From Candidatus Heimdallarchaeota archaeon (lineage in GTDB: Archaea; Asgardarchaeota; Wukongarchaeia; Wukongarchaeales; JBHIFL01), in NCBI GenBank assembly GCA_046761065.1, contig JBHIFL010000056.1, positions 1-26,932 on the forward strand: a stretch of DNA of 26,932 bases, written 5' to 3'. The notes under the pieces are model-generated. The model saw only the letters and a list, made by a program, of their open reading frames with translations. It ran no database searches and had not been told where the DNA came from. Shown piece by piece: positions 2,192 to 24,403 of this stretch. Both the position numbers and the translations under genes were made by a program. Position 1 is the stretch's first letter. Each line of letters opens with the position of its first letter.

Positions 2192-4264
2192 TTGAAAACT
2201 ATATTCGAGCGCCCTGATGTCACCCAAGAGCAATTTTACCATAAATTGTCTTTGATTCTAATAATGATCGCGAGTTTTTTCATTCGTATGATCCCTTATT
2301 GGAGATACGACCATTTACTCAAGGCGTTCGATCCTTACATTCAATTCGAGATAGCAAACCACATCTTGAATCATGGCTTCACAGATTGGGTGAACTGGGT
2401 AGACCAACAGACATGGTACCCAAATGGTCGAATAATGGGACAAAGCTCCTATATTGGTGTCCCTCTCAGCTCGGTAATCTTCTACAAGATCTTGCATGTA
2501 TTCAGGATAAATATTGATTTGATGACAATTTCATTCATTACTCCAGCGATCCTAGGAACCTTATCGGTTCTAGCAATTTATTTCCTGGGGAAAGAGGTTC
2601 AAGGTAAAAGAACAGGACTGTTCACAGCTCTCTTGTTGGGTGTAACTCCCGCGCATATTCAGAGAAGTATTACAGGCTTCTTTGATAATGAGAGTATCGG
2701 AATTCTTCTTCTAGTTGTAACTTATGTATTCTTTGTGCGTGGCCTTAAAACCAATAGCATGGTATATGGGCTTTTTGCAGGGATTACTCTTGGGTTTCTA
2801 GGCATAAGCTGGGGTGCTGCGAAATATGCCTTCGATTTTCTGGCACTTTACGTAATTGTTCTAATTCTCTTGAAAAAACATTCCACTCGTTTATTGGCGG
2901 CTTATGGTCCCTGTATCATTGTAGGAACAACAATCATCGCCATGATCCCCAAGATCGGGCCACAGATAATAACAAAGATTGATCACGCTTTCCCAATAGG
3001 GATCTTAATCCTATTAGCAGGTGTACTTGCCTATGAAGAGCTTGTTCAGACCACAGAAAAGCGTTCATCGCGTAAGTACACCCAATACTTCGCATTATTG
3101 GCAGGATTAGGGTTCACAGGGTTGATGCTTGCCCTTTGGGCCTTAGATATTGTGGGGGGGGTTGCAGGCAAATTTATTTCCGTCCTCTTTCCGTTCCTCA
3201 GAGAGGAACATCCCTTGATTGCAAGTGTAGCAGAGCATCTGCCTCTCAATTGGGCTAATATGTTCATTAACATTTATGTCATGACTTTTTTGATCCCAGT
3301 TGGTGTCCTCTACGCATTCCGACGCAGGAGAGAACTTGATATCTTTGCTCTACTCTTCACCTTGTCCAGTCTCTATTTTGCCAGCAGTATGGTTCGACTC
3401 CTGCTTATCCTTGCGCCTGCGGCCGCTCTCTTAAGTGGGATCGCACTCGACTCGATCATCACTCCCTTCGCCTTAGCATTCCAAGAACGGCTTACCCTTA
3501 GTAGGCGAAGACTCCGAGTCAGTGTGCATATTGGACGGGATTTCGCCGGCATTGCCATCCTCATCATCATGATGATGATGTTTTTCAACATCTGGCATGG
3601 CTTAAGATATACAAGTCGCAACCTATCCGCTCCCGAGATTGAGATCGCTTACGAAGTCAAAGGAACCCCGGAAACTGAATCCTTAGGAGATTGGCAAGAA
3701 GCTCTCGGCTGGTTACGCCTTAAAGGTCCTGAGACGATTGTCTTGAGTTGGTGGGACTATGGTTACTGGATCAGAGTTATGGGAAATGTCACAACTTTAG
3801 CAGACAATGCTACGGCTAATAGTACCCAAATTGGGAATATTGGAGCGTTCATGATCTCGACTCCAGACCTCTCGATAAAGATTGCAAAACTTTATGATGT
3901 CGATTACGTTGTTATCAACTTGGCAGCTGGTAATCTAAATGCGGGTTCGGATTTAGCAAAAGTTCAATGGATGATCAAGATCGGCGCAAAATACTCAAAT
4001 CTTGTGGATTTTGAGGTTACAGACTATTACATTGAGAATGCTACTCAACCCGAAGAGACCTTTACCGACAAATTCTGGAATTCCACCATTTATCAGCTGG
4101 CTCTCTATAATCTTGGCTCTCTCGTTTCTGAGATGCAAAAAGCTTATATAACGATGAAAAATGCCCCAATAGTCGATACCCTTCCCAAAGGCTTCAGGGA
4201 GGAGTATACGACCAAGAGCAATTGGGTTCGAATATACAGTGTTAATTACGATGACTTTGACTGA
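2192..4264 (+). CDS. aglB: Oligosaccharyltransferase catalytic subunit AglB/STT3 (eukaryote-like type)
   Basis: FDP acidic loop, WYPNGR, GFFDNE, IASVAEH, many TM helices, SWWDYGYWI (WWD at 3749), DNATANST and DLAKVQWMIKIG. The frame is open back to 2111, so the true start may be CTG at 2153. Confidence 0.97.
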   Translation: MKTIFERPDVTQEQFYHKLSLILIMIASFFIRMIPYWRYDHLLKAFDPYIQFEIANHILNHGFTDWVNWVDQQTWYPNGRIMGQSSYIGVPLSSVIFYKILHVFRINIDLMTISFITPAILGTLSVLAIYFLGKEVQGKRTGLFTALLLGVTPAHIQRSITGFFDNESIGILLLVVTYVFFVRGLKTNSMVYGLFAGITLGFLGISWGAAKYAFDFLALYVIVLILLKKHSTRLLAAYGPCIIVGTTIIAMIPKIGPQIITKIDHAFPIGILILLAGVLAYEELVQTTEKRSSRKYTQYFALLAGLGFTGLMLALWALDIVGGVAGKFISVLFPFLREEHPLIASVAEHLPLNWANMFINIYVMTFLIPVGVLYAFRRRRELDIFALLFTLSSLYFASSMVRLLLILAPAAALLSGIALDSIITPFALAFQERLTLSRRRLRVSVHIGRDFAGIAILIIMMMMFFNIWHGLRYTSRNLSAPEIEIAYEVKGTPETESLGDWQEALGWLRLKGPETIVLSWWDYGYWIRVMGNVTTLADNATANSTQIGNIGAFMISTPDLSIKIAKLYDVDYVVINLAAGNLNAGSDLAKVQWMIKIGAKYSNLVDFEVTDYYIENATQPEETFTDKFWNSTIYQLALYNLGSLVSEMQKAYITMKNAPIVDTLPKGFREEYTTKSNWVRIYSVNYDDFD

Positions 4265-6713: not shown

Positions 6714-7223
6714 TTACCACTGGATAACAGTTTCATGAAAAAGTCGGTGAAGATGTTTCCAAAAGAAAATCCGTTCTCGAAAGCGTATTCGCCAATTTGT
6801 TTTCCATAAAATACGTTTTATTTGTTTAAATGCTTTAACATACCCCGCTTGCCCAAATTCATGCGACTGCATGGAAGGATCAACTACCCATTTGTGAATT
6901 CTTAAATTGGTATCTATGAATAATTCCCAAAAACGGGAGGGGAACGTAACATATCCATGCTTTCCAATGCGTTTAAGTTCTTTAAAAGCTAGAGTTGGGT
7001 TATCAACATGTTCAAGCACATGTGTCGACCAAACAAAGAAAAAAACACTCGTTTTGAATGGTAAATGTTGTATATCACAGCAAATAAATGGACGCCCGTC
7101 AAGTAAGACTGATTTGCCACCTCTATGTACCGTAGGATCAACATATAAATCACAAAGTATAGTAGCTAGTGGTAATGGATCTGCACCACTCCCAGCATCT
7201 AGAATATGTCGTTTTTCGCTCAT
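6714..7223 (-). CDS. Class I SAM-dependent methyltransferase (Methyltransf_11-like)
   Basis: Motif I ILDAGSG, then CDIQHLPFK and THVLEHVDNP..FKELKRIG. Confidence 0.88.
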   Translation of the reverse strand: MSEKRHILDAGSGADPLPLATILCDLYVDPTVHRGGKSVLLDGRPFICCDIQHLPFKTSVFFFVWSTHVLEHVDNPTLAFKELKRIGKHGYVTFPSRFWELFIDTNLRIHKWVVDPSMQSHEFGQAGYVKAFKQIKRILWKTNWRIRFRERIFFWKHLHRLFHETVIQW

Positions 7224-8062: not shown

Positions 8063-9568
8063 ATGACATATAACGAACAATTCAAGACAAAGACGATTAC
8101 AGGCACCTTTTTTCTTTCACTTCAACCAGTGAGCACTATGCTTATTGGTTTTCTCATAATTCATGCAATTTCAAAGAACATATCAGCAGAGGATTTGGGT
8201 ATTTTCTCGTTTCTTAGCATGTTATACAACTGGTACGCCAATATTTTCCTATTGATGATTCACGGGGCTATAACAAAATATGTAAGTGAATATATTGGGC
8301 GAGAAGACAAGCAAAAAATTAAGAATTTGATTAAAACAAACACAACATACATTTTACTAGTTGCTCCGGCAACAACTTTCATAGCTTTTTTTATGACTAT
8401 GTATATCTTTAACATTTTATTATTGAAAATTGACTTATTTACAATTTTGATCTTTTGTTTAGCAACTGGCTCAAGTATTGTTGTCATATTGATGACAGCA
8501 CTTGGACGAGGATTACAAAAACTTAGAAAAGTGGGAATTAATTCATTCATTGGAACAATTATAGCCCAGACAATTACTTGGGTTCTCCTTATTTCAGGGT
8601 TCGGAATATCTAGTTTGATTTTCAGATGGTTATTAGCTAACGTCATAATAAGCTTCTTACTAATAATCTCAGACAGATCTCTTATATCTTTGAAGGGGGA
8701 CTTTTTTCCCTTTAGAAAACTCGTTAATTTCGGGTTTCCAATCTTTCTTGCATCTATGATTGCATTTGTTGGTCAACAATCATTCCTCAGGATAGTACTG
8801 AAGAACTCTTTTTCATTAAATGAAGTCGGATATTTTGAATTCGGAATGAGGCTAAGTGTTCTTGTCAGTACATTGGCTCTTGGGTATCAATATGCTTTGA
8901 CTCCATATTTTGCAACCGATTATGGGTATGGAGGTGAACAACTCTTAAGTGAAAATCTCGGATGGACTATAAAATTTGGGTCATTTGTATTTTCACTAAT
9001 GATTATAAGTAGTGTGACTGTGGGAAAGATTATTTTCGATATTATATTCAATGAGTATCTCCCCGCTTATCCTTTTTTTGTTGTGTTAGTTTTTGGACTT
9101 TGGCCTGTATTGCTTTTTCGACCTTTCGCAGCTGTTTTAATGGCTGTGGGGCATCCTGAGAAGCTTTTAATTGCAAGAATAATTTCGACCATATTTGGTG
9201 TCCCTTTGGCATTTATTCTTATTAGGTTGGGCGCGTTGGGTATAACTTTAGTGTGGGTGTTCATGGACACAGTATTGAGTGGTTTAATTTTCGTTTTTAG
9301 TAGAAGATATGTTAAAATACGAGTTAACTGGAAAAAAACTCTCAAACTTCTGATTTCTGCTATTCTTGTCATTCCTGCTGTTATAGTTGAGATTCATTTT
9401 CTACAAGACTTTACTGCTCTTTTTGTGGTAATATTGACGAATCTTATTATATACATCGTTCTTGTAAGAACACTCGGTCTGATCACAGAAAGAGAAGTTT
9501 CAATTGCACTTGCTTTTATGCCTGAAGGTTTAAGGAAAAAAATTGCACGAATACTGAGCAAATATTAG
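8063..9568 (+). CDS. MOP-superfamily oligosaccharide flippase (Wzx/RfbX-like)
   Basis: 501 aa with roughly 12-14 hydrophobic segments; AEDLGIFS, ITKYVSEY, LVNFGFP, EVGYF and LMAVGHP patterns; located in a glycosylation cluster. Confidence 0.9.
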   Translation: MTYNEQFKTKTITGTFFLSLQPVSTMLIGFLIIHAISKNISAEDLGIFSFLSMLYNWYANIFLLMIHGAITKYVSEYIGREDKQKIKNLIKTNTTYILLVAPATTFIAFFMTMYIFNILLLKIDLFTILIFCLATGSSIVVILMTALGRGLQKLRKVGINSFIGTIIAQTITWVLLISGFGISSLIFRWLLANVIISFLLIISDRSLISLKGDFFPFRKLVNFGFPIFLASMIAFVGQQSFLRIVLKNSFSLNEVGYFEFGMRLSVLVSTLALGYQYALTPYFATDYGYGGEQLLSENLGWTIKFGSFVFSLMIISSVTVGKIIFDIIFNEYLPAYPFFVVLVFGLWPVLLFRPFAAVLMAVGHPEKLLIARIISTIFGVPLAFILIRLGALGITLVWVFMDTVLSGLIFVFSRRYVKIRVNWKKTLKLLISAILVIPAVIVEIHFLQDFTALFVVILTNLIIYIVLVRTLGLITEREVSIALAFMPEGLRKKIARILSKY

Positions 9569-9692
9569 CTAATAGAGAGAAATAGTGAATGATATTTCAG
9601 ACTCAAGTCAATAATGTAATTTTTGTCTTTAGAAAACAACTTAATCAACCATATACATTCGATATTGAATGAACGCGAATGAGGTAGAGATC

Positions 9693-10775
9693 ATGAAAAT
9701 ACCAATTGCAAAACCACGCTTATCAGAAAAAACCCTTGAAAAAGTGAAGTCCGTCTTAGAATCTGGGATGTGGATAGATAGTTCCAACGTAAAGAAACTT
9801 GAAGACGCGTTTGCAAGATATTTAGGGGTAAAATACGCGAGAGCAGTAAGTAATGGAACTGCTGCACTGATGGTAGCTGTTAATTCCCTGAATATAGGAT
9901 TAGGAGATGAAGTCATTGTTCCCAGTTTTTCATTCGCAGCTACTGCAAATTGTGTGTTATTCCAAGGTGCAAAACCAATATTTACAGATATCGATCCAAT
10001 GACCTTCAACATAGATCCTAGAAGTGTTAAAAAGAATCTCTCGAATAAAACAAAAGCTATAATTCCTGTTCATCTCTATGGCTTACCTGCACCAATGGAT
10101 GAGTTATCTGACTTGGCACACGATAGAATTTGGATAATCGAAGATGCATGTCAAGCCCATGGGGCTGAATACAACGGACAGAAGGTCGGGAGTATCGGAA
10201 CCATTGGGGTTTTTTCTCTTTACCCTACAAAAAACATGGTGTGTGGGGGGGAAGGCGGGTTGATTGTAACAAACAACGAGGAGATATTTGAGCGAATCCA
10301 ATTGTTTGTTAATCACGGTCAAGACAGAAAATATCATCATGTTGTGCTTGGCTACAATTTCAGGATGTCGGAAGTTAACGCAGTCATCGCATTGGACAGC
10401 CTTAAAACCCTTGATTCTTTCAATGATAAGAGAATCGCCAATGCCGAATCCTATAGTAGGGAATTGAGCGATGTTACATACCTCGACCTTCCAGTAACCC
10501 CCAATGGCTGTAAACATGTCTTTCATCAATATACAATTAAGTCGAAGATACGAGATCAAATCATAAAAACCTTTGAAGAAACCGGGATTGGGTTTGGAAT
10601 TCACTATCCTCTACCCATCCACTTACAACCCTTCTATAGGGCAACTCATGGCGATATCCACCTAAAGAACGCAGAAACCGTTGCTAAACATGCGATATCA
10701 ATTCCAGTCCGTCCTGATTTAACAGGAGAGGAAAAGAGAAAAATTATCAGTGTTTTGAGAGGACTAGGTGGCTGA
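9693..10775 (+). CDS. DegT/DnrJ/EryC1/StrS PLP sugar aminotransferase (WbpE/WlbC-like)
   Basis: [49 protein letters not shown] (PLP lysine), GEGG and GYNFRM. ATG 9693 follows GAGGT; the ORF track starts at 9669. Confidence 0.95.
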
Positions 10776-11364
10776 TGTGTCAAGAGAACTCGAGAAAAAC
10801 AAAGGTATAGTTGTTCACAAACATGTAAAAATAGGTCAAAGTCCCAATATCGGGTCATTTGTAGAGCTAGGGCTAAATGACATGTCCTTAGAAATTGGGG
10901 ATGATGCTGTTATAAGATCGGGATCCGTTATATATGGCAATGTCAAGATTGGTCACCATTTTCGATCAGGTCATCATATTTTAATCCGGGAGAAAACAAT
11001 AATCGGCGATAACGTTCAGATCGGAACCAATAGCATCGTCGATGGAAATTGTGTAATCGGTGATCATGTCAACATTCAAAGTAATGTCTACGTGACTTGG
11101 GGGATGAGGATAGAGGATGGAGTGTTTATGGGACCGTGTTCTGTCACAATCAATGATAAAATTCCTCCAGCAACAAATCGATCCTTGCTTCAGGCCTCTA
11201 TTTTGAGAAAAAAATGCGTCATAGGAGCTGGGGTAATAATCCTTCCTGGGATTGAGATAGGAGAAAATTCGTTGATCGGCGCTGGCTCAGTGGTTACGAA
11301 AAATATTCCTAAAAATGTAATAGCCTATGGCAATCCTTGTCGAGTGCAAAAAAGTAGAGAATAA
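10768..11364 (+). CDS. Left-handed beta-helix N-acetyltransferase (WbpD/WlbB-like)
   Basis: Hexapeptide repeats ([24 protein letters not shown]), IQSNVYV, FMGP, NDK and [12 protein letters not shown]. Overlaps the upstream gene by 8 nt. Confidence 0.93.
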
Positions 11365-11471: not shown

Positions 11472-12863
11472 ATGACTTTACTTTTTCTCTCAATTGATGA
11501 ATTGAAAATGCGATTACGCTCTGGTAAGATTACAATTTCAGTGCATGGGTTAGGAAAGCTAGGATTACCTCTCGCAGTCATCTATGCAAATGCAGGCGCT
11601 CGAGTGATCGGAGTAGACCGTTCCCAAGAAATTGTCGATGCTCTTAACCAGGGAAAGATACTTGATAGCACCGAACCTCACATCCATGAGTTGGTTGAAT
11701 CTCTGGTTCACCAACAAAAGCTAAAAGCCACAATGAATGGCGTAGAAGCGGCCCGAAAATCCGATATATCGGTAATAGTGGTACCTACTCTAGTTGATGA
11801 GCGGTTAAGACCCAATCTATCATTTTTGAAATTAGCTGCAATAGATATCGGTCAAGGGCTACGAAAGGGAGATGTTGTGCTTTTGGAGAGTACGGTCCCT
11901 CCTGGGACTACGGAAAATTTTCTCCGCCCTGTTTTAGAAGACGTGAGTGGACTTACAGTTTCTAGGGATTTTGGGTTAGGATACAGTCCGGAACGGGTTT
12001 ATGTTGGACGTATAATCTCAGATGTTGTTGATCGCTATCCAAAATTAGTAGGAGGGATAGACAAAAAAAGTGAAGAGGTAATCGCTGCAATTTACGAGGT
12101 TATTGCCAGAAAGGGAGTTATCCGGCTTGGCAGCACACGAGCAGCAGAGATTACAAAGGTATTTGAAGGGATTTACAGAGATGTGAATATAGCACTTGCC
12201 AATGAAATGGCTTGGATCTGTGAAAAATTGAATGTTGATGTTTATAGAGTTATCCGAGCCGCTAATACACAGCCTTTTTGCAATATCCTACAGCCAGGAA
12301 TTGGTGTCGGGGGGCACTGTATTCCGGTATACCCTCATTTTCTAACGGATGTGATCGAATCTCTTAACCATAAACCTTCACTAATCCAAACTGCACGCAA
12401 AATCAATCTAAGAGCGCCTCTACATACAACTGAATTAGTACTAGCAGAACTAAAAGCTGCAGGAAAACCTTTGAAGAATACAAAAGTTACAGTTCTTGGT
12501 CTATCTTATAGGGCAGGAGTAAAAGAGGATCGATTCTCACCTGTATACCCATTAGTTGAAGCTTTGAAGGAACACGGCCTTGTGGTAGTGGTACACGACC
12601 CTTTATGGTCCCGGAATGAAGCAGATCGATTTCCATTTGACTTTACTGATGATCTAGAAGAAGCTCTTTCAGGAGCAGACTGTATTATAATCGCAACTGA
12701 ACATCGACAATATCAAGAAGAGACGCTTCTTCCGTTATTTGAGAATGTTAATAAGCCTATTATTCTAATAGATGGAAGAAGAATGTTAGATAAAACTCAG
12801 GTGATGAATATCAAAGACATGAGATATGTTGCGATTGGGGATATTTCTGTTCCTAACGGTTGA
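11472..12863 (+). CDS. UDP-N-acetylhexosamine 6-dehydrogenase (WbpA/WecC family)
   Basis: GLGKLG Rossmann motif, VVPT, LESTVPPGTT, YSPER, YRDVNIALANE, PGIGVGGHCIP (catalytic Cys), LGLSYR and DGRR. Confidence 0.95.
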   Translation: MTLLFLSIDELKMRLRSGKITISVHGLGKLGLPLAVIYANAGARVIGVDRSQEIVDALNQGKILDSTEPHIHELVESLVHQQKLKATMNGVEAARKSDISVIVVPTLVDERLRPNLSFLKLAAIDIGQGLRKGDVVLLESTVPPGTTENFLRPVLEDVSGLTVSRDFGLGYSPERVYVGRIISDVVDRYPKLVGGIDKKSEEVIAAIYEVIARKGVIRLGSTRAAEITKVFEGIYRDVNIALANEMAWICEKLNVDVYRVIRAANTQPFCNILQPGIGVGGHCIPVYPHFLTDVIESLNHKPSLIQTARKINLRAPLHTTELVLAELKAAGKPLKNTKVTVLGLSYRAGVKEDRFSPVYPLVEALKEHGLVVVVHDPLWSRNEADRFPFDFTDDLEEALSGADCIIIATEHRQYQEETLLPLFENVNKPIILIDGRRMLDKTQVMNIKDMRYVAIGDISVPNG

Positions 12864-12938: not shown

Positions 12939-13997
12939 CTATTCCCAGTTTATTCTTGTAACTTCACCTGTTTTTGCAGATTCAATCGCACTAAGAATGC
13001 ATCGTAAAGCGTTTGTTCCAACGATTCCATCTACTTCAGGAGCCCTATTATTGTGTAATGATTCTAAGAAATGTTTGTCCTGTAAATACAAGGGTTCAAC
13101 TCTGTCTTTAGTAAAAAGAAAGCGTTCAGTTTGTTCACGACCAAGATATGTAAACATAACATCCATAAAACCAGCTTTGGCGCTTTGTGGTACTTGCCCT
13201 TTTAATTCAACTACAGATTGAAGCACATAATCCATCGTTATTGTTCGAGAATAAGTTTGAATTGTAAGAAATCTTTGTTTTAAGTTGGGATTTGCGCGAT
13301 ATGAAGCTCTTAGGTTCGCCAAAAGGATTCCTTCGTCGTTGAAAGGGATTTCAAAAGTATAAATTGCTTGTAACTCTGAAGCATAAAGAAAATTAGTCGG
13401 TTTAGCTTCAACAGCGGTTACAAATGTAGGTTTGGAGTCAAACAAATACATACATATGTCTATATCATGGATTAAGAGATCAAAACCTACGCCATGATAA
13501 GATTTAGGGCTTGGGGGACCTGGTCCAATCCTTTTTGAAAAAAAATCAATAATTGGTTCATCTTCAATTAGTTCTTGAAGGGTTGTCTTTAAGGCAGTGA
13601 CTGCGGGATTGAATCGCTCGATATGTCCAACTTGAAGGAATTTTTTATGCTTCTTGGCCGTTTCAAGTATGTGTTTTGCATCATGAAGAGTGAGTGCTAT
13701 TGGCTTTTCAATGAATAAATGTGAAAATGGAAGCAGTTTCATTGCGAGTTCGTAATGAGTATCTGTTGGGGAAGCAATAATAGCAGCATCTGGTGTTTTT
13801 TCTTTTAACATTTCATCGATATTGGAAAAAGCATCATGTATATTATATTGTGCTGTAATTCTGTTTAACGTCTCTTGATTATGGTCACATAAAATGAGTT
13901 CATCACATAAACCCATTTCAGAAAGCTCTGAATAAACCCTTACATGGTTGTATCCCCACTTACCACCCCCAATAATAGCTAAGGATAGGTTTTTCAT
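12939..13997 (-). CDS. Gfo/Idh/MocA oxidoreductase (WbpB/WlbA-like UDP-GlcNAcA 3-dehydrogenase)
   Basis: IIGGGKWGYNH, SPTDTH, FIEKPIA, VGHIERFNPA and DLLIHDID. GTGAGG RBS upstream. Confidence 0.92.
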   Translation of the reverse strand: MKNLSLAIIGGGKWGYNHVRVYSELSEMGLCDELILCDHNQETLNRITAQYNIHDAFSNIDEMLKEKTPDAAIIASPTDTHYELAMKLLPFSHLFIEKPIALTLHDAKHILETAKKHKKFLQVGHIERFNPAVTALKTTLQELIEDEPIIDFFSKRIGPGPPSPKSYHGVGFDLLIHDIDICMYLFDSKPTFVTAVEAKPTNFLYASELQAIYTFEIPFNDEGILLANLRASYRANPNLKQRFLTIQTYSRTITMDYVLQSVVELKGQVPQSAKAGFMDVMFTYLGREQTERFLFTKDRVEPLYLQDKHFLESLHNNRAPEVDGIVGTNALRCILSAIESAKTGEVTRINWE

Positions 13998-14099: not shown

Positions 14100-15122
14100 T
14101 TAACTGATATTTAAACGGACCACGAATATCTCAGCATAGACTAAAGCAACTACAAGTATCATTACTACAAATTGGATTGCCCAAAAGAGGTAAACTATCT
14201 GCTTTTCTGTTAGATCATACTTCCACATGATTAAATGGGTTAAAGAGCTGATTTGGGTTTTTCCATTTAACTTAGGAGGTTTAAGTTTACCTTCGTCACT
14301 TAAAACACCAAAACTCTCTCCGTTGAATTTTGTTTTGGCTTTAAAAAAAAGTTCGAAAAAATGTAAACCTAATATAGCTGTTCCTGCCATAGGAAGTAAT
14401 GCAACAGCTCCAGCTTTTTCCATATTTCCCATTGTAGACATTATAGCCAAAGATGCGCCTATGATTAGGGTTCCAGTATCTCCGGGAAAAATCTTGGCAG
14501 GATAGATATTGTATTTCAAAAAGGCAAGTAAAGCGCCTAATAAAGTAAGTCCAAAAATAGCACTAATATTAGAATCTGTTATAAAAGCACAAATAACCAA
14601 TCCTCCACATGCTATAGCACCTATACCTGTTTCTAGACCATTTAAGCCTGCTAACATATTTATCGCATTAGCTGCTCCTGTTATCGCAATTGGGATAATA
14701 ATAAACCAATAAATCCTTCCTAATTCCAATATGCCAAAAAAGGGAATATAAACCAAAGATCTTCCAAAACGGATCATAACTAAAGGAGCGCTTCCGAAGG
14801 CGCATAAAATAACTTTTTGAGATTGTTTTAACGGAAAAAGGTCGTCTATCATTCCAATTATCGCAATAAGAGTAAGAGTACATAAGGCAGCAAGCAGGAT
14901 TGTTTTAGAAATAGTATCTACAAAAGTAGCAGTAATAATTATGCTTGAAATCATTCCTATTAGAATAATTACTCCTCCCATTTCCGGAACTCTAGGTTTA
15001 TCAACTTTATGAAAATCAATTCCTACAATACCTATTTTTTCAAGTTTTTTAGTCATATAAGGAGTCAATACTAAAGTGACAATAAATGAAATAACAAAAG
15101 GTATTACAAATTCCAGAATCAT
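14100..15122 (-). CDS. aglH: UDP-GlcNAc:dolichyl-phosphate GlcNAc-1-phosphotransferase (AglH/Alg7/DPAGT1, MraY superfamily)
   Basis: GIDFHK..PRVPEMGG, IGMIDD, NAINMLAGLNGLETG, YNIYPAKIFPGDTG and SLTHL; about 10 TM helices. Confidence 0.93.
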   Translation of the reverse strand: MILEFVIPFVISFIVTLVLTPYMTKKLEKIGIVGIDFHKVDKPRVPEMGGVIILIGMISSIIITATFVDTISKTILLAALCTLTLIAIIGMIDDLFPLKQSQKVILCAFGSAPLVMIRFGRSLVYIPFFGILELGRIYWFIIIPIAITGAANAINMLAGLNGLETGIGAIACGGLVICAFITDSNISAIFGLTLLGALLAFLKYNIYPAKIFPGDTGTLIIGASLAIMSTMGNMEKAGAVALLPMAGTAILGLHFFELFFKAKTKFNGESFGVLSDEGKLKPPKLNGKTQISSLTHLIMWKYDLTEKQIVYLFWAIQFVVMILVVALVYAEIFVVRLNIS

Positions 15123-15238
15123 GTATATCCTTCTACTTCTTTATTGTTGAATAGATATTAGCTTTGCTTTCGAATTATATGATGTTAAAATGATGATTTA
15201 ACCAAATATATTTTTGTTTGGAAATTGAATCATTTAAT

Positions 15239-15715
15239 ATGCGAAAAAAAGTGCTTTTAGTGATGAGTCATGGTGGACATACTAAACAAATGTTACTTTT
15301 AGACGAACAACTAAAACCAAAAATTGACTCATGCTATCTTGTACTCAAAAGAGAGCGATTTGGACTAGATAAAATGCATGGAGAGATTTATCGAATTTTT
15401 GGAGCTAGGAAAAAAGATTCTGGCTTGATTTACGATATTTTTGGAACTTTAGTTATGATTTTTCAATCATTCTGGATTTTACTAAAGGCGAGGCCTGATG
15501 CAATTATATCTTGTGGAACAAGTTCATCTGTACCAATTTCCTATCTAGGAAAACTTATGGGAAGGAAAGTAATTTTCATTGAAAGTTGGTCTCGTGTTTT
15601 TGACCGATCTTTATCAGGGCGACTAATCTATCCAATTGCTGATCTATTATTCGTTCAATGGAAAAAATTGAAAGCTTTATATCCCAAAGCTATTTATGCA
15701 GGCCGATTTAGATGA
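15239..15715 (+). CDS. alg14: Alg14-like acceptor-binding subunit of a split GT-B glycosyltransferase
   Basis: SHGGHTKQM, RPDAIISCG..SVP, FIESWSRV..SLSGRL and FVQW..LKALYPKAIYAGR. ATG 15239 is preferred over TTG 15218. Confidence 0.92.
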   Translation: MRKKVLLVMSHGGHTKQMLLLDEQLKPKIDSCYLVLKRERFGLDKMHGEIYRIFGARKKDSGLIYDIFGTLVMIFQSFWILLKARPDAIISCGTSSSVPISYLGKLMGRKVIFIESWSRVFDRSLSGRLIYPIADLLFVQWKKLKALYPKAIYAGRFR

Positions 15716-16167
15716 TTTTTATAACAGTGGGTACTACAGAATTTGATGCCTTGCTTAGAAAGATCGATAACTTAGTTGAGAATAAAAAAATTCGAAATGA
15801 GGTTATAGCGCAAATTGGAAACGGTAGTTACGTTCCAAAAAATATCAAATTTTTTCGATTCGCAAAATCATTAATCCCTTTTTTAAAAAAAGCGAAGTTA
15901 ATCATATCTCATGCGGGAGCTGCTACGATTTTTGAATGTTTAGAGCTTAAAAAGAAACTCATTGTAATTGAAAATCCAGATGTAAGAAGAGATGCCAAAC
16001 AATTTTTGAAAGAATTATCCAGTAAAAATTACTTAATCTGGTGTAAACATATCGACCAATTGTTAGAGTGTATTGAAAGTGCAAATACCATACAATTAAA
16101 CTATTACAGTTCTCCAAAATGTACGATCTCAGAAAAAATCATCAATTTTCTGAACCAAAATATGTGA
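15712..16167 (+). CDS. alg13: Alg13-like nucleotide-sugar-binding subunit (GT28 C-terminal-like)
   Basis: MIFITVGTTEFD, QIGNGSYVP, LIISHAGAATIFE and LIVIEN. ATGA 4-nt overlap with alg14. Confidence 0.92.
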   Translation: MIFITVGTTEFDALLRKIDNLVENKKIRNEVIAQIGNGSYVPKNIKFFRFAKSLIPFLKKAKLIISHAGAATIFECLELKKKLIVIENPDVRRDAKQFLKELSSKNYLIWCKHIDQLLECIESANTIQLNYYSSPKCTISEKIINFLNQNM

Positions 16168-16442
16168 TTTACGAAAATAGACAAAATAAAGGAATTTTGA
16201 TCAACAATAAAAGTGAAATGAGGCTTTAATTATCTTTTTAAGGCATACGAAGAACGAAATCCCGATTTCACATTCTATCCATTAATTGTTTATTATTAAC
16301 CCAAATTTCATTCTTACTCTTATTAATTTAACCTTTCACACTCTTGATACAAGTAATTCATGAGAATGTAAATTAACACATACGGAATTTCCTTAATTTG
16401 ATGATAAGACTCTGTATTTATAATATAAGAGGAGTAGATATA

Positions 16443-18380
16443 GTGGTTTTTGAATTAAGATACAAAGATGGGCTTGGAAGGATTGGTATCTTAGAGACAC
16501 GTAGCGGAATAATTGAAACACCCTGCCTCCTTCCCGTTATTGATCCAATTCACCAAAATATCGCTCCAAATGAGTTAAAAAAAGCTGGAACCAGTGTTGT
16601 GATCACTAATGCATATCTCATTCATTCAAATGAAGATGTAAGGAGGAAAGCCCTAGACTTAGGTGTTCATAAGGTCATTGGATGGCTAGGTCCGGTGATG
16701 ACCGATTCTGGTGCTTTTCAATTGATGCAGTATGGAGCCATTAACATCACAAATGAAGCAATTATTGAATTTCAGTGTGCCATCGGCTCAGATATTGGAA
16801 TTATACTCGATATCCCTGTAGCAAAGGGTTCACGAAAAGACTTTGTGAAAGCAGTACAAGAAACATTAAAACGTGCACAAGAGTTCGAAAACCTTGATAA
16901 GAGCAAAAAAATTTTGTGGACAGGACCTATTCAAGGAGGTCCCTATATCGATTTAGTGACAGAATGTGCTCGCATCTTAGGTAAGCTCCCTTTTGATTTA
17001 CATGCACTAGGAAGTGTAGTTCCACTTCTTGAAGAATATAAGTTCTCAACCGTTGTAGAAATGATCTTTGCATCAAAGCAACATATGCCTGTGAATCGCC
17101 CATTACATTTATTTGGGGCGGGTCATCCAATGTTTTTCGGGTTTGCTGTTCTTTTAGGGTGCGATTTGTTTGACAGCGCTGCCTATGCATTGTTCGCCAA
17201 AGAAGGCCGATACCTAACCCCTCACGGGACATATCTTCTAGATAACCTTGAGTATTTCCCTTGTTCATGCCCTATTTGCTCAAAACATGAGCCAAATGAT
17301 ATCCGAGAGATGAGCCGTGATGAAAAAGAAAAGGATCTCGCGATTCATAACCTTTATGTGAGCTTTCAAGAACTTAACCTTATTAAACAGGTAATTCGTG
17401 AAGGATCCTTGTGGCGACTTGTCTCAGAACGAATTGCAGCGCACCCACACTTAGTAGATGCTTGGAAAGCGGTTTTTGAACGGAAACACATCCAATTCAT
17501 TGAAAGATTTGAACCCTTGTCAAAAAAACGAGCCCTATTCATCACAAGACAAGAACTGTTACAGCATCCCTTAATTATAAGACACCGTCAGCGAATACTT
17601 GACTCGTTTTATGTGTGGAGCGATACACTCCTGTTAACGCGAACAACACATGGCATAACTCCTTCACCAAGCTGGCAAATTTGCATCGTATCTGATGTTT
17701 TTGGATTGATACCACTTGAAATCCAACAGAAGTATCCTTTGCTTCAGTATAAGTCTTATAAAGTCTTTATAAATCAAGAAGAATTCTTACATACATTTTT
17801 AGAAAAGATTGTCCCATATTTTAAGGAAGTTTTGATTCATCAGAGCGTAGAGGCTGCGAGTAGCCTTGCAGAAGCCTACGGATGCGAATTAGTAGAAACA
17901 ATGGATTCACCTTCAATAACAAGTGAAAGATATGACGAAGTTATAGCACGCTCTTTCTTAGCCTATCAATTTGGCTTGGAGGCGGGAAATGCAATAGCTA
18001 ATCCGAAAATCCATCGGTCGAAGCGTACGGGAAGAATTGGGTGGATCTACGATGATTCAATTCCCATGGCCTCAATTAGGGCTCGTGATTTCGTTATTAT
18101 TCCACGTATCGAGTTGGCAAAAGTTCTTAATAAATTATTACCCTATCCGAATATGCGAGTTATTGTCGATAAAACGGCTGAACCCTTCGTCCGTGAAGGG
18201 AAGAGCGTCTTTGCAAAATTTGTACGGGGTGCTTGGGAGGGGATTAAATGTGGTGATGAAGTCCTAGTAGTTAGTGAGACAGGGGATTTGGTGGCTACCG
18301 GAACAGCAATACTGGCGCCCTTGGAAATGTTACACTTCAAAAAAGGAATTGCTGTTAAAACTCGGGAAGGGCTTAGATAA
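16443..18380 (+). CDS. tgtA: Archaeosine tRNA-guanine(15) transglycosylase with C-terminal PUA domain
   Basis: FE..KDGLGRIG, ETPCLLPVIDP, ITNAY, MTDSGAFQL, HLFGAGHP, DLFDSAAY, Zn site CSCPIC...HN and PUA GKSVFAKFV. GTG 16443 follows AGAGGAG; the ORF track starts at 16398. Confidence 0.96.
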   Translation: MVFELRYKDGLGRIGILETRSGIIETPCLLPVIDPIHQNIAPNELKKAGTSVVITNAYLIHSNEDVRRKALDLGVHKVIGWLGPVMTDSGAFQLMQYGAINITNEAIIEFQCAIGSDIGIILDIPVAKGSRKDFVKAVQETLKRAQEFENLDKSKKILWTGPIQGGPYIDLVTECARILGKLPFDLHALGSVVPLLEEYKFSTVVEMIFASKQHMPVNRPLHLFGAGHPMFFGFAVLLGCDLFDSAAYALFAKEGRYLTPHGTYLLDNLEYFPCSCPICSKHEPNDIREMSRDEKEKDLAIHNLYVSFQELNLIKQVIREGSLWRLVSERIAAHPHLVDAWKAVFERKHIQFIERFEPLSKKRALFITRQELLQHPLIIRHRQRILDSFYVWSDTLLLTRTTHGITPSPSWQICIVSDVFGLIPLEIQQKYPLLQYKSYKVFINQEEFLHTFLEKIVPYFKEVLIHQSVEAASSLAEAYGCELVETMDSPSITSERYDEVIARSFLAYQFGLEAGNAIANPKIHRSKRTGRIGWIYDDSIPMASIRARDFVIIPRIELAKVLNKLLPYPNMRVIVDKTAEPFVREGKSVFAKFVRGAWEGIKCGDEVLVVSETGDLVATGTAILAPLEMLHFKKGIAVKTREGLR

Positions 18381-19340: not shown

Positions 19341-20120
19341 CTACTGATGTTCTACCATTTGAGCCAATTCGAAGACTGTAGGATATTTGGCTTTTCCTAC
19401 GAGGTGTTCGATGACTCGCAGGATCACTAAGTAGATCGTGGGAAAGAGAATTAGACTCGCAATCAAATCCACAATATAGTGTTCCCCAAGATAGAGCACA
19501 ATTGGGGGGAATATAAGCGTATTCAATATATAAATAATGTTCATTCTTCGGTAGTTGATTCGCTTTGTTAGTAAGATACCAAAGATTGAATACCCGAAAT
19601 GGCCTGAAGGGATACCTCCGTACTTTATACCAACCAATTTTTCACTCGAGGGCCAGATTTCCTTCCTGATCGGTCGAATATCTTTACTCGATCGTATTGG
19701 AACAAGAACCGGAAACATTATTTGCAACGAGAACTGTGCTAGGCCACATACCAACCAAGCGAGACCGTAACGCCAAGCTTCTCTTCCCGTGGTGATCATG
19801 ACTAGTAAAAGCGAAGCTAACACAAAAGTGAATGCAAAAACATAAAGAAGAGAGGCCACCCAATCAATAATCCAGAATGTATTAGGAAAGTGGGTTAACA
19901 CGTATACTTGGAGGGTCTCAGTAACTGATGAAGAAAAGATTATACTATCAGCGGCTATTTGTTGTAAATCCTCTGAAAACTGACGGGTTTGATAGAACAC
20001 AAAATATGTAATTCCAAGAAGGAGCAGTGCCACATTTTTTCGTTCTTTTACGAATTCCTGTGTCGTAAGCCGCAGGAGTATATAGAATCTTTCTAGCGAC
20101 GATCTCTTACTTACTTCCAC
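19341..20120 (-). CDS. PAP2_3 / Aur1-Ipt1-like lipid phosphotransferase (inositol-phosphorylceramide-synthase family)
   Basis: About 6 TM helices; FPVLVP, GIPSGH and LYLGEHYIVD (His/His/Asp triad of the Aur1/SMS/PAP2 type). GTG start after GAGGAG. Confidence 0.8.
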   Translation of the reverse strand: MEVSKRSSLERFYILLRLTTQEFVKERKNVALLLLGITYFVFYQTRQFSEDLQQIAADSIIFSSSVTETLQVYVLTHFPNTFWIIDWVASLLYVFAFTFVLASLLLVMITTGREAWRYGLAWLVCGLAQFSLQIMFPVLVPIRSSKDIRPIRKEIWPSSEKLVGIKYGGIPSGHFGYSIFGILLTKRINYRRMNIIYILNTLIFPPIVLYLGEHYIVDLIASLILFPTIYLVILRVIEHLVGKAKYPTVFELAQMVEHQ

Positions 20121-20284: not shown

Positions 20285-20719
20285 ATGGTGTTCCCAATGA
20301 CAGAAGATGACACCTCTCAAGCAGAAGTAGTAGTTGCTTCAGCAGAAGATGAAACTAGGAAGATTCTAAAGGATTTACTCGAAAATGTTTCCAAAGTTGA
20401 AGCAGCACTTGTTGCAAGTGCTGATGGCTTACCTATTGCTGCAGAACTTCCAAGTGGCGTGGATGATCTAATTATTGGGGCAATGACTGCAGCCGTATTA
20501 TCTTCATCTGGAAGGGCTTCCGAGGAACTTCAAAAAGGGCATTTAGATACAATAATGATTAAATCGGAGGAAGGGATGATCTTCATAAAGGGGTTGGAGA
20601 ATGCAGTTCTAACGGTTTTAGCAAAATCGGATGTGAACGTCGGTCTTTTATTAATATACATGGATAAGGCTTGTAAACATATTGCTGATATAGTATCAAA
20701 ATCATGGATTACTGAATGA
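20285..20719 (+). CDS. Roadblock/LC7 (MglB/LAMTOR2-like) domain protein
   Basis: VEAALVASADGLPIA, AMTAAVLS..RASEEL.KG.L..IMIKSEEG and LTVLAKSDVNVGLL. Alternative start ATG 20297 after GGTG. Confidence 0.92.
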   Translation: MVFPMTEDDTSQAEVVVASAEDETRKILKDLLENVSKVEAALVASADGLPIAAELPSGVDDLIIGAMTAAVLSSSGRASEELQKGHLDTIMIKSEEGMIFIKGLENAVLTVLAKSDVNVGLLLIYMDKACKHIADIVSKSWITE

Positions 20720-20827: not shown

Positions 20828-21916
20828 ATGCGAGTTGTTCATCTCCTGAACAGTTACGGAACCAATTATGGAACTCAAGAAGTAGTCCGTAACTTAGTTC
20901 AACAAGAAACTGAAGCTGGTTATACACCGGAAATAATCACTTCAGATCTCTCAAAAAATACAACAACAGATATATGTAAAGTAACGAGGATTCCAGCTCT
21001 CTTTACCTTTTCTCGGACACCTTTTACTCCCTCCTTAGTACGTCATATCTTATCAAAGGACGCAGATATTTTTCATTTACATGGACCTCTACCTTGGTTC
21101 GACTCTGTTTTACCATTGAAGAGAGCAGTTGATGGCAAGAGCAAATTTGTTTATACAATTCAAAACTTAACACCTGAAACCCAATTTCTTACAAGGGTTT
21201 TAAGCTTCGGTTACCAAAATATCGCCCTACGAATTGCGGCAAAAATTGCAGATGTTGTTATCACCCCAACAAAAGCCTTGGTTCAATTGTTGGGGCGGTT
21301 AGTTGACCCAAATAAGACCGTCGTAATTCCTAATGGGGTTAATGTAGAAGAATATACCCCATCCTACAAGTATTCTTCAAACATATTATTCATTGGAGGA
21401 ATAAAACCCGATAAGGGCATTCATGTGTTAATTAAAGCATTTCGAAATATTAAGCACATTGTAGATAATCTAACATTAAACATTGTGGGTGCACCTCTGT
21501 GGAAAGATGACTACTACCTGAGATTACGCGAATTAACAAAATCCGATCCTACGATAATCTGGCATGGACGAGTATCTGAAGATCGAAAGAAAAAAATCCT
21601 TGCTAATTCAGGAGTCGTCGTCCTTCCATCCGTCAGCTTAACTGAAGGCTTTGGACTCGTTTTATTGGAAGGTATGGCCTCTGGAAAACCTGTGGTCGGT
21701 TCAAACCTTCCAACAATCGCTGAATGGATTGACCCATCTTTTGGATTACTCTTTCAAACAGGAAATGCCGATAATTTGGCTCAAACAATTGTAATCGCGT
21801 TACAAAATGCAGAACGCTTAGGTATAAATGGTCGTAAGTGTATCGAGAAGCGTTATAATTGGAATCTAATCTTCGAAGATTATAGAAACATCTACGAAAT
21901 CCTATCTAGGCGATAA
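20828..21916 (+). CDS. Glycosyltransferase family 4 (GT-B)
   Basis: DADIFHLHGP, VIPNGV, FIGGIKPDKG, LPSVSLTEGFGLVLLEGMASGKPVV and YNW. Confidence 0.93.
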   Translation: MRVVHLLNSYGTNYGTQEVVRNLVQQETEAGYTPEIITSDLSKNTTTDICKVTRIPALFTFSRTPFTPSLVRHILSKDADIFHLHGPLPWFDSVLPLKRAVDGKSKFVYTIQNLTPETQFLTRVLSFGYQNIALRIAAKIADVVITPTKALVQLLGRLVDPNKTVVIPNGVNVEEYTPSYKYSSNILFIGGIKPDKGIHVLIKAFRNIKHIVDNLTLNIVGAPLWKDDYYLRLRELTKSDPTIIWHGRVSEDRKKKILANSGVVVLPSVSLTEGFGLVLLEGMASGKPVVGSNLPTIAEWIDPSFGLLFQTGNADNLAQTIVIALQNAERLGINGRKCIEKRYNWNLIFEDYRNIYEILSRR

Positions 21917-22336: not shown

Positions 22337-24403
22337 TTATTTTAATTTTACAACCAATAATTGGGAGTACTCGAATTTTTGGAACCCCGACAGTTCTTCC
22401 CATACTTCATCCCAAGATTTTGTCCAAGATTCTAGTGGAGGCGTATCCCATTTATAAAATCTAGCTGTCATCAAGATATCCAGTCGTGTTTCTTCGTAGA
22501 TCTGCCGAGTTGTATTCCAAGTTGTCCTCCGTATTATGAAAAGGTTTACATTGTTGTCTCTCAATAGTTGCAAGTATCTGGTCAGTTTAGCTAGTATAAC
22601 GGGTTTCCCAAGTTGATTGCCCCATACCAGAAATGTTGAGTAATTAACCTCGAACTTGGGAAAAAGGACACCTTCTATCATATACACTAGAACTAAATCA
22701 GGTTCCAAGCAGAAAATAGATCCAGTTTCTACAGGTAAATCATTAGATATTTTAACTAAATCATGATATGCTTTCTCCTCTTCCCACATATAAACTCGGC
22801 CACTAAGTGAAATGCCATAAATCATCTGTATAAGTAGAATAATCAATACGAGTTTTTCTGCATTCTTCAATAATGAAAGCCTAAGGTAATTGCTCTTTAT
22901 ATTTACCACTCTTTTTTTTGTATATTGAAGGAAGCATCCAATCGATACTCCCACAATAATGCTTCCTGCCAAAGCCACATAGAGACTTAATCGAAATTGT
23001 ACTGTGAATAAACCAAAGGGCAGAACACTCCAAAATAAACTGAAAGCCAGCCCAAGAAAAAATATTCCATAGATTAATTGAAAGGGCTTTCGAGTAGAAT
23101 TATTAAACTCTAGGTATTTCCAATATCGGGGTAAAAAAATTCCTACAATAAAGATAACGCCCGTACCAATTATTCCTATGGAATTTGCAATAACATTTGC
23201 AAAGTCGAAAAGTCCTACAGCTCTAAACATTCTTTTATTACTAGTGTACTGTGCCTTTGGTGTTTCTAGGTTGTTTAAAAAAAGTGATATATCATAGTAA
23301 ATTTCATCGAGACTAGAAATAATCGACAGTAAAGGATATAATATGAAGTAAAAAACAATGAGCCATGTCTTCCAGGTTTTTGCACATCCTAAAATTTGAA
23401 ATTTCCAAGTTTTGGCTTGGTGGGTTCGCAACCAGCGGAAAAACGAAAAAGTTCTTTGAATTATCATTGTTATAGAGACCATATAAAGCGTGAGTGTACT
23501 TGTTGCCCAAAACAAGCATAAATAAATAACCAGTAGCTTTTGATAGGCTGTATTTGGACGTGGTTTTATTTTCACAGAGATTATCAGCAAAGAAAAGATT
23601 AGTGGGATCGATAGTGTTTCATGAACAACTAGAAGGGAATGATAAATTATTATTGGAGCTGTAACATAAAAACACATTGCAACGATCCCTCCTGTTAAGG
23701 CAATTGAGCGAGAGACTCGCGGTTTTAGGTATATTTGTACTAGAACAAAAATCCCTGCAATTTCAAGAAAAAACATCATGAGTCCAAAGAATTTAGTCAC
23801 ATCTATGGTTAGTTGAACTGTATTTACAGGAAGAAAAATACTTGCTAAAAAGCACTCAATTGCGTGACTATAAAAATCTAAAACATATGGTTCAGAAAGC
23901 TGCCCAGATGCCGCTACACGTCGACCAAGTCGCCAATACTTCCATGTATCAAACCAATAAAAATCAGTTTTTTTCATGGCGTAGTGATAAATTTTTGGGT
24001 CAATTAGAATGGTTAGGCAAATAATAATAATCGCCAACCCTAGAGACTCATAGAATTCCTGTTTAAAGAAAAAAGTACTAAATTTTCTCAATAAATAAAA
24101 CGATGAGTTTGTAGAGATTTTTTTCCCGCGAAATATTCGTTCAGGCGTTTCCAATATAAAAATGAATAAAATAAGAGGAAGTATTGCAACAATAACCACT
24201 GTAATTGGGACTAATAAACTTAGAATGCCCAAGATCAAATAGGAATAAGCTAAATATCCAATTGCAAGTGGAATAATGACTACTAATATTTCTAATAAAG
24301 ATAATTGAATTCTTAAACTTCTTTTTAGCAAATAATGGATTCCCAATGCAGCTAGACTGGTTAGTAAAATCATCCAAAGATAAGGGATAATGCTACTCAG
24401 CAT
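22337..24403 (-). CDS. Large polytopic membrane protein, possibly a GT-C-fold glycosyltransferase
   Basis: Many TM segments, an acidic/aromatic loop (DFYWFDTWKYW) after the first TMs, HETL before a later TM, and a soluble C-terminal domain. ATG 24403 gives an 11-nt overlap with the upstream gene; the ORF track starts at 24436. Confidence 0.6.
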   Translation of the reverse strand: MLSSIIPYLWMILLTSLAALGIHYLLKRSLRIQLSLLEILVVIIPLAIGYLAYSYLILGILSLLVPITVVIVAILPLILFIFILETPERIFRGKKISTNSSFYLLRKFSTFFFKQEFYESLGLAIIIICLTILIDPKIYHYAMKKTDFYWFDTWKYWRLGRRVAASGQLSEPYVLDFYSHAIECFLASIFLPVNTVQLTIDVTKFFGLMMFFLEIAGIFVLVQIYLKPRVSRSIALTGGIVAMCFYVTAPIIIYHSLLVVHETLSIPLIFSLLIISVKIKPRPNTAYQKLLVIYLCLFWATSTLTLYMVSITMIIQRTFSFFRWLRTHQAKTWKFQILGCAKTWKTWLIVFYFILYPLLSIISSLDEIYYDISLFLNNLETPKAQYTSNKRMFRAVGLFDFANVIANSIGIIGTGVIFIVGIFLPRYWKYLEFNNSTRKPFQLIYGIFFLGLAFSLFWSVLPFGLFTVQFRLSLYVALAGSIIVGVSIGCFLQYTKKRVVNIKSNYLRLSLLKNAEKLVLIILLIQMIYGISLSGRVYMWEEEKAYHDLVKISNDLPVETGSIFCLEPDLVLVYMIEGVLFPKFEVNYSTFLVWGNQLGKPVILAKLTRYLQLLRDNNVNLFIIRRTTWNTTRQIYEETRLDILMTARFYKWDTPPLESWTKSWDEVWEELSGFQKFEYSQLLVVKLK

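Follow-up and report, generated by a model that had tools for sequence, protein, structure and literature searches.

The 26,932-nucleotide contig JBHIFL010000056.1, the whole of which is called the window here, belongs to the genome of an Asgard archaeon that GTDB places in the Wukongarchaeum order, within which it forms a separate family. It carries a gene for an AglH/Alg7-type polyprenyl-phosphate N-acetylhexosamine (HexNAc)-1-phosphate transferase next to, and divergent from, an overlapping gene pair for the two subunits of a split GT-B glycosyltransferase: an Alg14/PssD-type acceptor half and an Alg13/PssE-type nucleotide-sugar donor half. These three genes form a conserved cassette. It probably serves to start and extend a lipid-linked glycan for later transfer to protein by AglB, with a second sugar that is possibly not N-acetylglucosamine (GlcNAc). 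The cassette is homologous to eukaryotic Alg7 and Alg13/Alg14 at the level of protein families and is not their specific sister; the evidence gives it no privileged link to the corresponding complex of the endoplasmic reticulum (ER).

In the list of open reading frames (ORFs), AglH occupies positions 14100-15122 of the - strand (340 amino acids), the Alg14-like gene 15239-15715 (+ strand, 158 amino acids) and the Alg13-like gene 15712-16167 (+ strand, 151 amino acids), just where an initial annotation of this DNA had placed them. Its other observations on layout hold as well: the Alg14 stop codon and the Alg13 start codon share an ATGA at 15712-15715, as is read directly, and an AT-rich spacer of 116 nt (15123-15238) separates the divergent AglH and Alg14 genes. 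The arrangement goes beyond chance because five related contigs have the same divergent trio between otherwise different flanks (Alg13 identity of 90% in L020, 81% in L050, 72% in L047, and 64% in L048 and L049). The gene for archaeosine tRNA-guanine transglycosylase (arcTGT) adjoins the trio in every one of them. Another genome of the same order has an arcTGT with 100% identity to a record of Ca. Wukongarchaeum yapensis, which ties the window genome to the order of Wukongarchaeum. In L048 it lies on the other side, by AglH and on the opposite strand, and a local rearrangement around a fixed trio is therefore indicated. In L057 (56% identity) no AglH gene is found upstream of the pair. Contig L020 (JBHIAC010000082.1), deposited as 'bacterium isolate K_3_bin.3', encodes proteins 83-94% identical to those of nine consecutive window genes; its "bacterium" label is very probably wrong.

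When five orthologous spacers (67-141 nt) are aligned, only two blocks prove to be kept, one at each end and each with a TATA-like run: AAATATATTTTT before Alg14 and, at the other end, TTTTTATTG, which is CAATAAAAA on the AglH strand. The L020 spacer has lost its middle part. The two promoter-like end blocks fit two back-to-back promoters. An alternative TTG start for Alg14 at 15218 was considered and rejected as not conserved, because the same frame has a stop codon in the orthologous L048.

AglH (PF00953, 123 bits) is a multi-pass protein with some 9-10 hydrophobic segments. The motifs defined for AglH of Sulfolobus acidocaldarius (PMC5222938) are all there, as D36xxK39, D92D93 and N151xxN154xxxG158xxG161LxxG165, with Pro at the fifth position of the DDxxN/D motif; the bacterial HIHH motif is absent from the sequence. 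Searches of the PDB return MraY (64 bits) and human DPAGT1 (61 bits) about equally and so do not discriminate between them. The genome has a second AglH/GT4 paralogue, 35% identical to the window protein (321 amino acids; G000 contig C123, L034:1228-2193, - strand), which lies beside a methyltransferase gene. Of the two, the window protein is the one that is more like the AglH which other Asgard genomes have as their only copy (156 versus 103 bits to a Wukongarchaeum genome).

The Alg14-like protein matches PF08660 with 84.6 bits (cut-off 27) and the NCBIfam PssD model NF041549 with 143.7 bits (cut-off 110), and its gene is the only PF08660 match in the genome. It has the HGGH14 motif and E115, which are invariant or nearly so in two family alignments; the GGH histidine, H14 here, is essential in Agl24 (PMC8993221). 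The absence of a membrane anchor from its N-terminus, already pointed out in the initial annotation, is borne out: there is no N-terminal hydrophobic segment, and the sole hydrophobic stretch is internal (residues 63-81). Split prokaryotic Alg14 homologues are generally anchorless. The C-terminal YAGRF, at first taken for a eukaryotic mark, is none, because it is common to Odinarchaeia and Aenigmatarchaeota.

The Alg13-like protein matches PF04101 with 72.1 bits (cut-off 22) and the NCBIfam PssE model NF041548 with 137.6 bits (cut-off 120). A phmmer search of the PDB with the window sequence gave no match; the profile of the Alg13 family finds yeast Alg13 best (2KS6, 2JZC) and then MurG. The one other PF04101 match in the genome (C1 L032:790-2031) is a 413-residue GT1-like protein with a GT28 C-terminal domain and is not an Alg13 homologue.

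What sets the window Alg13 apart is a loop in its donor half. A His-Gln (HQ) dyad follows the fourth strand of the Alg13 half in 275 of 284 aligned family members, among them the rows of named eukaryotes, Odinarchaeia (Odin), Thorarchaeota (Thor) and named bacterial sequences. The exceptions are the subclade of the window, P0007, Aenigmatarchaeota L021, P0030 and the outgroup. At this place the window protein has VRRDAKQ against VRGKHQWE in the sisters that keep HQ, with one residue deleted and D94-A95 standing for the dyad; in the family alignment the altered donor-site loop spans R92-Q97 (RRDAKQ; 15985..16002, + strand). The residue-by-residue comparison with human ALG13 by which the window protein had been judged eukaryote-like ended just before the NHQ motif, which the window protein lacks. 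In human ALG13, N107 directly precedes H108-Q109 (as read from the primer) and the N107S substitution leaves 8% of activity (PMC9527342); superposition of ALG13 on MurG is reported to place N107 in the substrate-binding region (PMC8945535). The window protein retains the HAGA of the G-loop and the following E75.

Loss of the dyad is common to the window, L020, P0002, P0003 and P0004 (the last encoded on L050); the orthologous L047 and L048 keep it. The Aenigmatarchaeota proteins that lack it have a different sequence form (xNPDL) and represent a separate event. As read from the alignment, the dyad has thus been lost twice independently, in the window subclade and in a group of Aenigmatarchaeota. 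In both groups the loss goes along with particular neighbours. DegT aminotransferase, acetyltransferase, dehydrogenase and GFO genes adjoin the HQ-less window and L020 trios, and the first three adjoin that of L050; the HQ-keeping L047 and L048 are without the sugar-pathway set, L048 having only a remnant of DegT. This remnant (L048:3782-3922) is 47 codons long, lies just downstream of the HQ-keeping Alg13 orthologue, and suggests, if faintly, that L048 once had the special-sugar genes or has lost them. Among 30 Aenigmatarchaeota loci, a GFO gene adjoins three of the four that are HQ-less (two of these have an acetyltransferase gene too) and none of the 23 that keep HQ; of the rest, L062 reads DQ and two gave no Alg13 match. 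The Aenigmatarchaeota pairs that adjoin AglH all keep HQ, or DQ in the case of L062. The contigs of P0007 and P0030 are too short to inform on gene neighbours. Since the events are two, the link between HQ loss and the sugar pathway is suggestive and no proof.

The cassette lies in a glycosylation island. Ahead of it come, in order, AglB/STT3, two GT4-type transferases, a methyltransferase, a Wzx-like protein, DegT, a hexapeptide acetyltransferase, a 6-dehydrogenase and GFO; after it come arcTGT, a DUF2334 deacetylase-like protein, a PAP2 phosphatase, a GT4 and a GT2 transferase. The AglB/STT3 oligosaccharyltransferase gene (2192..4264, +; PF02516, 180 bits, and PF21436) marks this as an island for N-glycosylation. 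It is followed by the two GT4-type genes (4357-5343 and 5381-6406, both +) and the methyltransferase gene (6714-7223, -), all assigned with Pfam, and by a flippase candidate (8063-9568, +) whose Wzx-like assignment (PF13440, 29 bits) is weak. Four sugar-pathway genes, assigned with Pfam and NCBIfam, then lead up to the trio: the DegT aminotransferase (9669-10775, +), the hexapeptide N-acetyltransferase (10768-11364, +), the nucleotide-sugar 6-dehydrogenase (11472-12863, +) and the GFO-type 3-dehydrogenase (12939-13997, -). The best NCBIfam match of the last is the archaeal UDP-GlcNAc 3-dehydrogenase NF040723, at 173 bits, which is below the cut-off of 450. Named PDB relatives that score best include C-3 enzymes: QdtB and WbpE for DegT, QdtC and WlbB for the acetyltransferase. 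All four classes, 6-dehydrogenase, 3-dehydrogenase (with that sub-cut-off match), C-3-type aminotransferase and 3-N-acetyltransferase, are present, and this four-gene set matches the WbpA/B/E/D route to UDP-GlcNAc3NAcA (PMC10622841). No 2-epimerase gene was seen.

On the other side of the trio, arcTGT (16398-18380) has TGT, C2 and PUA domains. The PAP2-family membrane phosphatase (19341-20120, -; Pfam), also present in L050, is a candidate dolichyl-pyrophosphate phosphatase that would recycle the carrier and so fit a glycan linked by pyrophosphate (PP). Between it and the further GT4 transferase gene (20828-21916, +; Pfam), and thus inside the island, lies a Roadblock/LC7-domain gene (20285-20719), of a family that is expanded in Asgard archaea. 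With its archaeal, PUA domain-containing arcTGT and its Roadblock/LC7 gene, the window contig is not a bacterial contaminant. ORFs of 699, 185 and 225 amino acids at 22337-24950 (-) and 25254-25931 (+) gave no Pfam match at E <= 0.001, and no polymerase, chain-length or export genes are seen in the window.

The presence of AglB and of Wzx-like, GT4, GT2 and PAP2 genes in one island makes it likely that the trio starts a lipid-linked N-glycan. AglH would put HexNAc-1-phosphate, probably GlcNAc-1-phosphate, on polyprenyl or dolichyl phosphate, as family homology and context suggest. Alg14 and Alg13 would be translated from one message by way of the ATGA overlap and, to judge by this coupling of their genes, would form a split GT-B heterodimer. 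Its anchorless Alg14 half would bind the lipid-PP acceptor at the membrane, maybe by way of the helix at residues 63-81, as the peripheral MurG does, and its Alg13 half would supply the UDP-sugar. The second sugar would go to the C4 hydroxyl of lipid-PP-HexNAc, yielding a beta-1,4-linked disaccharide-PP-lipid. Extension by the island's transferases, flipping across the membrane and transfer to protein by AglB may then follow, a step that again draws on the gene families and their context. What the analysis shows is which genes these are, how they are laid out and conserved, where the pair falls in the tree, and the lost motif with its gene neighbours; the substrates, the heterodimer, the donor and the link to AglB are what we infer here.

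Which sugar comes second is a matter on which the initial annotation had been specific, proposing dolichyl-PP-GlcNAc2 (Dol-PP-GlcNAc2). The missing HQ dyad and the putative 3-acetamido-uronic-sugar pathway encoded next door cast doubt on that chitobiose product, and we regard GlcNAc as a rather unlikely second sugar. The same two features, an HQ-less donor half and a cassette that adjoins putative 3-acetamido-uronic genes, are the reason for thinking that the second sugar may instead be a 3-acetamido(-uronic) sugar such as GlcNAc3NAcA, a possibility to be taken seriously that stops short of being probable. A change of donor would be within the range of the family, because its members use different ones: GlcNAc in Alg13/14, MurG and Agl24, galactose or glucose in EpsE/F and Cps14F/G, and glucuronic acid in PssD/E and WelK-type enzymes. 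More tentative still is a general form of this proposal, in which HQ loss in an Alg13/PssE subtype, having occurred at least twice and in linkage with the putative 3-acetamido-uronic pathway, would signal that a 2,3-diacetamido uronic acid has replaced GlcNAc as the second sugar. If it were true, this lineage would build a Methanococcus-like sugar on a eukaryote-like, PP-linked start of the Alg7/13/14 type, and the HQ loop would be a readable predictor of donor choice across the Alg13/PssE family.

Several points weigh against this view of the cassette and its second sugar. The HQ-less loci represent two independent events only, and L050 is without a GFO gene at the trio site. The dyad is kept by family members that are credited with galactose, glucose and glucuronic acid donors, so that its loss names no sugar. 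It could be other transferases of the island that use the special sugar. Donor, acceptor and lipid are, finally, all things that we infer.

How eukaryote-like is the pair? The initial annotation had counted absence of the VGTHEQPFD signature against a bacterial origin, but this does not separate Alg13 from its bacterial relatives, because bacterial PssE proteins (Vibrio, Endozoicomonadaceae) also start with VTVGTTxFD or ITVGTTEFD. The PssE model does not serve as a bacterial-versus-eukaryotic discriminator either and was dropped for this use: ciliate ALG13 passes its cut-off (135.2 bits), next to the window's 137.6, Odin at 132.8, Thor at 129.5, other eukaryotes at 88-99 and Pseudoalteromonas at 169. 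The PssD model does separate the window Alg14 (143.7 bits) from the Odin (103), Thor (97) and Entamoeba (96) sequences.

For phylogeny, a profile of two eukaryotic Alg13 sequences yielded 150 representatives, and those looked up are eukaryotic, including the fused Alg13-Alg14 of Entamoeba. In an Alg13-only tree (89 rows, 153 columns; posterior mean site frequency (PMSF) model with ultrafast bootstrap) a 99/87 split has the eukaryotes on one side. The window clade (99/97) falls in a 20-row group with Thorarchaeota, one Aenigmatarchaeota and one Bdellovibrionales sequence (90/84), and Odin groups separately with named bacterial PssE (98/89). The deep branches are beyond the reach of 153 columns, and the one fused outgroup sits on a very long branch that attaches at different places from run to run; the approximately unbiased (AU) test for a group of the window clade with eukaryotes gives p = 0.51, without the power to decide sisterhood. 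A concatenated Alg14 + Alg13 set (27 taxa, 308 columns) says more, with just four fused Alg13-Alg14 proteins, of which one is named (Entamoeba), standing for the eukaryotes because the Alg14 profile search gave mostly Thorarchaeota. Its best tree places the window clade, with weak support, with Aenigmatarchaeota and Bdellovibrionales (57/86); gamma-proteobacterial pairs join next (62/36), then Thor and a further Asgard family (78/82), and the eukaryotes go weakly with Odin (51/13), all on a weak backbone. On these data the AU test rejects an exclusive group of the window clade and the eukaryotes, as represented by those four fused proteins (p = 0.002). It rejects neither "all Asgard pairs + eukaryotes" (p = 0.083) nor "all Asgard pairs" (p = 0.13), two groups that were defined after viewing the tree. 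Outside its own lineage, the nearest sampled relatives of the window pair are DPANN pairs, an Aenigmatarchaeota pair being 47-49% identical, and that of a Bdellovibrionales bacterium.

Of the eukaryotic trio for making lipid-linked oligosaccharides that the initial annotation had described, what stands is thus homology to Alg7, Alg14 and Alg13 at the family level. That the pair is specifically of eukaryotic type is contradicted by the PssD score, by the DPANN and bacterial pairs that it joins, with weak support, in the concatenated tree and by the AU test against sisterhood with eukaryotes.

The distribution of the genes is patchy. Among 151 Asgard genomes, an Alg14-type gene is found in four of four from Odin, 24 of 26 from Thor, the one genome of a further family, two of four of a family with fused, TACK-type proteins, and the window genome. 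It was not found in two Wukongarchaeum genomes that are 87 and 92% complete. In agreement with this, the split homologues that Meyer et al. (2022) found near the eukaryotic ones came from Thor and Odin alone, those of Wukong being fused and TACK-derived (PMC8993221). This patchiness, together with the nearest relatives, favours lateral acquisition, or else ancient loss elsewhere. As to synteny, which the initial annotation had suggested following across Asgard genomes, the trio holds together in the five related contigs. In Thor AglH is on other contigs than the pair; in Odin about 3 kb separate the two, with genes for a cytidylyltransferase, riboflavin kinase, Trm112 and NAD synthase in between. 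The Odin arrangement was tried as a glycan cluster and rejected, because these intervening genes are housekeeping genes. In a sample of the Aenigmatarchaeota phylum, 34 of 151 genomes have the pair, and AglH lies within 1.5 kb of it (<=1.5 kb) at six of the 30 loci examined. In the Bdellovibrionales genome a phosphotransferase gene of the GT4 family (PF00953, WecA/AglH-type) diverges from the pair, as in the window. The Odin layout and the Aenigmatarchaeota analogue make the cassette a recurrent archaeal module rather than an Asgard speciality. A different arrangement of the split enzyme is seen in a Sedimentisphaerales bacterium (L054, JAFGBG010000013.1, 4001-6192), with the Alg13-like gene first, then a GT1 gene and then the Alg14-like gene, uncoupled and in reversed order.

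Three other explanations of the locus have to be weighed. The trio could be a vertically inherited archaeal forerunner of the ER initiation complex, making Dol-PP-GlcNAc2 with AglH as the anchor of Alg14. Homology of all three genes at the family level speaks for this, as do the 38% identity of ciliate ALG13 (P0046) to the window Alg13, the published trees that put Thor and Odin homologues by eukaryotes (PMC8993221), and the two AU tests that do not reject a group of eukaryotes with the window clade (Alg13 alone) or with all Asgard pairs (concatenated). Yet the concatenated data reject the narrower of these groupings, and their best tree joins the window clade to Aenigmatarchaeota, Bdellovibrionales and gamma-proteobacterial pairs while eukaryotes go, weakly, with Odin. 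Two Wukongarchaeum genomes of the same order are without the pair, which in the 151 Asgard genomes is confined to Odin, Thor, f15, f26 and the window genome; the HQ dyad of all sampled eukaryotes is missing; and an anchorless Alg14 is the rule in prokaryotes. We therefore consider direct ancestry of this kind unlikely.

Less probable again is a role of the cassette in initiating not an N-glycan but a polysaccharide of the cell surface (capsule, exopolysaccharide or an S-layer-linked polymer), in the way of bacterial PssD/E, EpsE/F and Cps14F/G. The pair passes the PssD and PssE models, its named relatives from bacteria are encoded in clusters for O-antigen or capsule, together with Wzx, polymerase- or ligase-like genes and sugar dehydrogenases, and the window does have a Wzx-like gene and several GT4 genes; but AglB/STT3 is in the same island, polymerase, chain-length and export genes were not seen in the window, its AglH is the conserved Asgard copy and the only Alg14-type gene of the genome is here. 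The thought that the Alg13-like subunit is decaying or non-catalytic after losing a dyad that is nearly universal in its family, with N107S beside that dyad cutting human ALG13 activity to 8%, can be given very little credence: the HQ-less form is intact and 81-90% identical in three further contigs with its ATGA coupling kept, the HAGA of the G-loop and E75 are retained, and several Aenigmatarchaeota genomes retain an HQ-less group of independent origin. The preferred reading remains a module for starting and extending a lipid-linked glycan for AglB.

How the first steps of eukaryotic N-glycosylation arose is a matter of debate, and published split Alg13/14 homologues are from two Asgard groups only. 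The locus described here adds a third Asgard lineage with split Alg14/Alg13, in the Wukongarchaeum order, and in none of the other Asgard genomes sampled are AglH, Alg14 and Alg13 linked as tightly. Its "eukaryote-like trio" is no evidence of direct ancestry, because the module also occurs in DPANN archaea and by a bacterial WecA-type gene, and because the pair does not group with eukaryotes. What it offers is a testable rule, that loss of the HQ loop may accompany a different donor sugar, in Alg14 and Alg13 proteins that are small and predicted to be soluble.

Compared with eukaryotic Alg7 (DPAGT1) and Alg13/Alg14, the cassette has the same three families, the same division of a GT-B enzyme into acceptor and donor halves and presumably the same two steps on a PP-linked carrier. 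It differs in having an anchorless Alg14, an HQ-less Alg13 and clustered, divergent genes, in not being the eukaryotic sister and in a donor that may not be UDP-GlcNAc. The bacterial pairs PssD/PssE, Cps14F/Cps14G and EpsE/EpsF resemble the window pair in size, in lacking an anchor, in translational coupling and in lying in glycan clusters by sugar dehydrogenases, and the window pair passes both of the NCBIfam equivalog cut-offs for PssD/PssE-type proteins. In contrast to them, it shares its cluster with an AglH-type polyprenyl-phosphate HexNAc-1-phosphate transferase (PNPT) as initiator and with AglB/STT3; the sampled bacterial clusters contain genes for O-antigen or capsule, and in L055 the initiating transferase is of the Bac_transf type.

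Among archaea, the Thor and Odin Alg13/Alg14 (PMC8993221) are likewise split, anchorless Asgard pairs and are 31-42% identical to those of the window. They keep HQ, however, and have AglH apart from the pair, and the window comes from another Asgard order. The DPANN modules of Aenigmatarchaeota are like the window in having AglH near the pair at some loci and in their HQ-less subgroup by GFO and acetyltransferase genes; their AglH is mostly co-directional and upstream rather than divergent, and their form of HQ loss, xNPDL, is independent. Agl24 of Sulfolobus acidocaldarius and MurG, as partner of MraY, also act second, on a lipid-PP-sugar after a PNPT, and have the GGH motif. They are single chains, and the fused TACK-type proteins L019 and L036, which served as the outgroup, are just 22-31% identical to the window pair.

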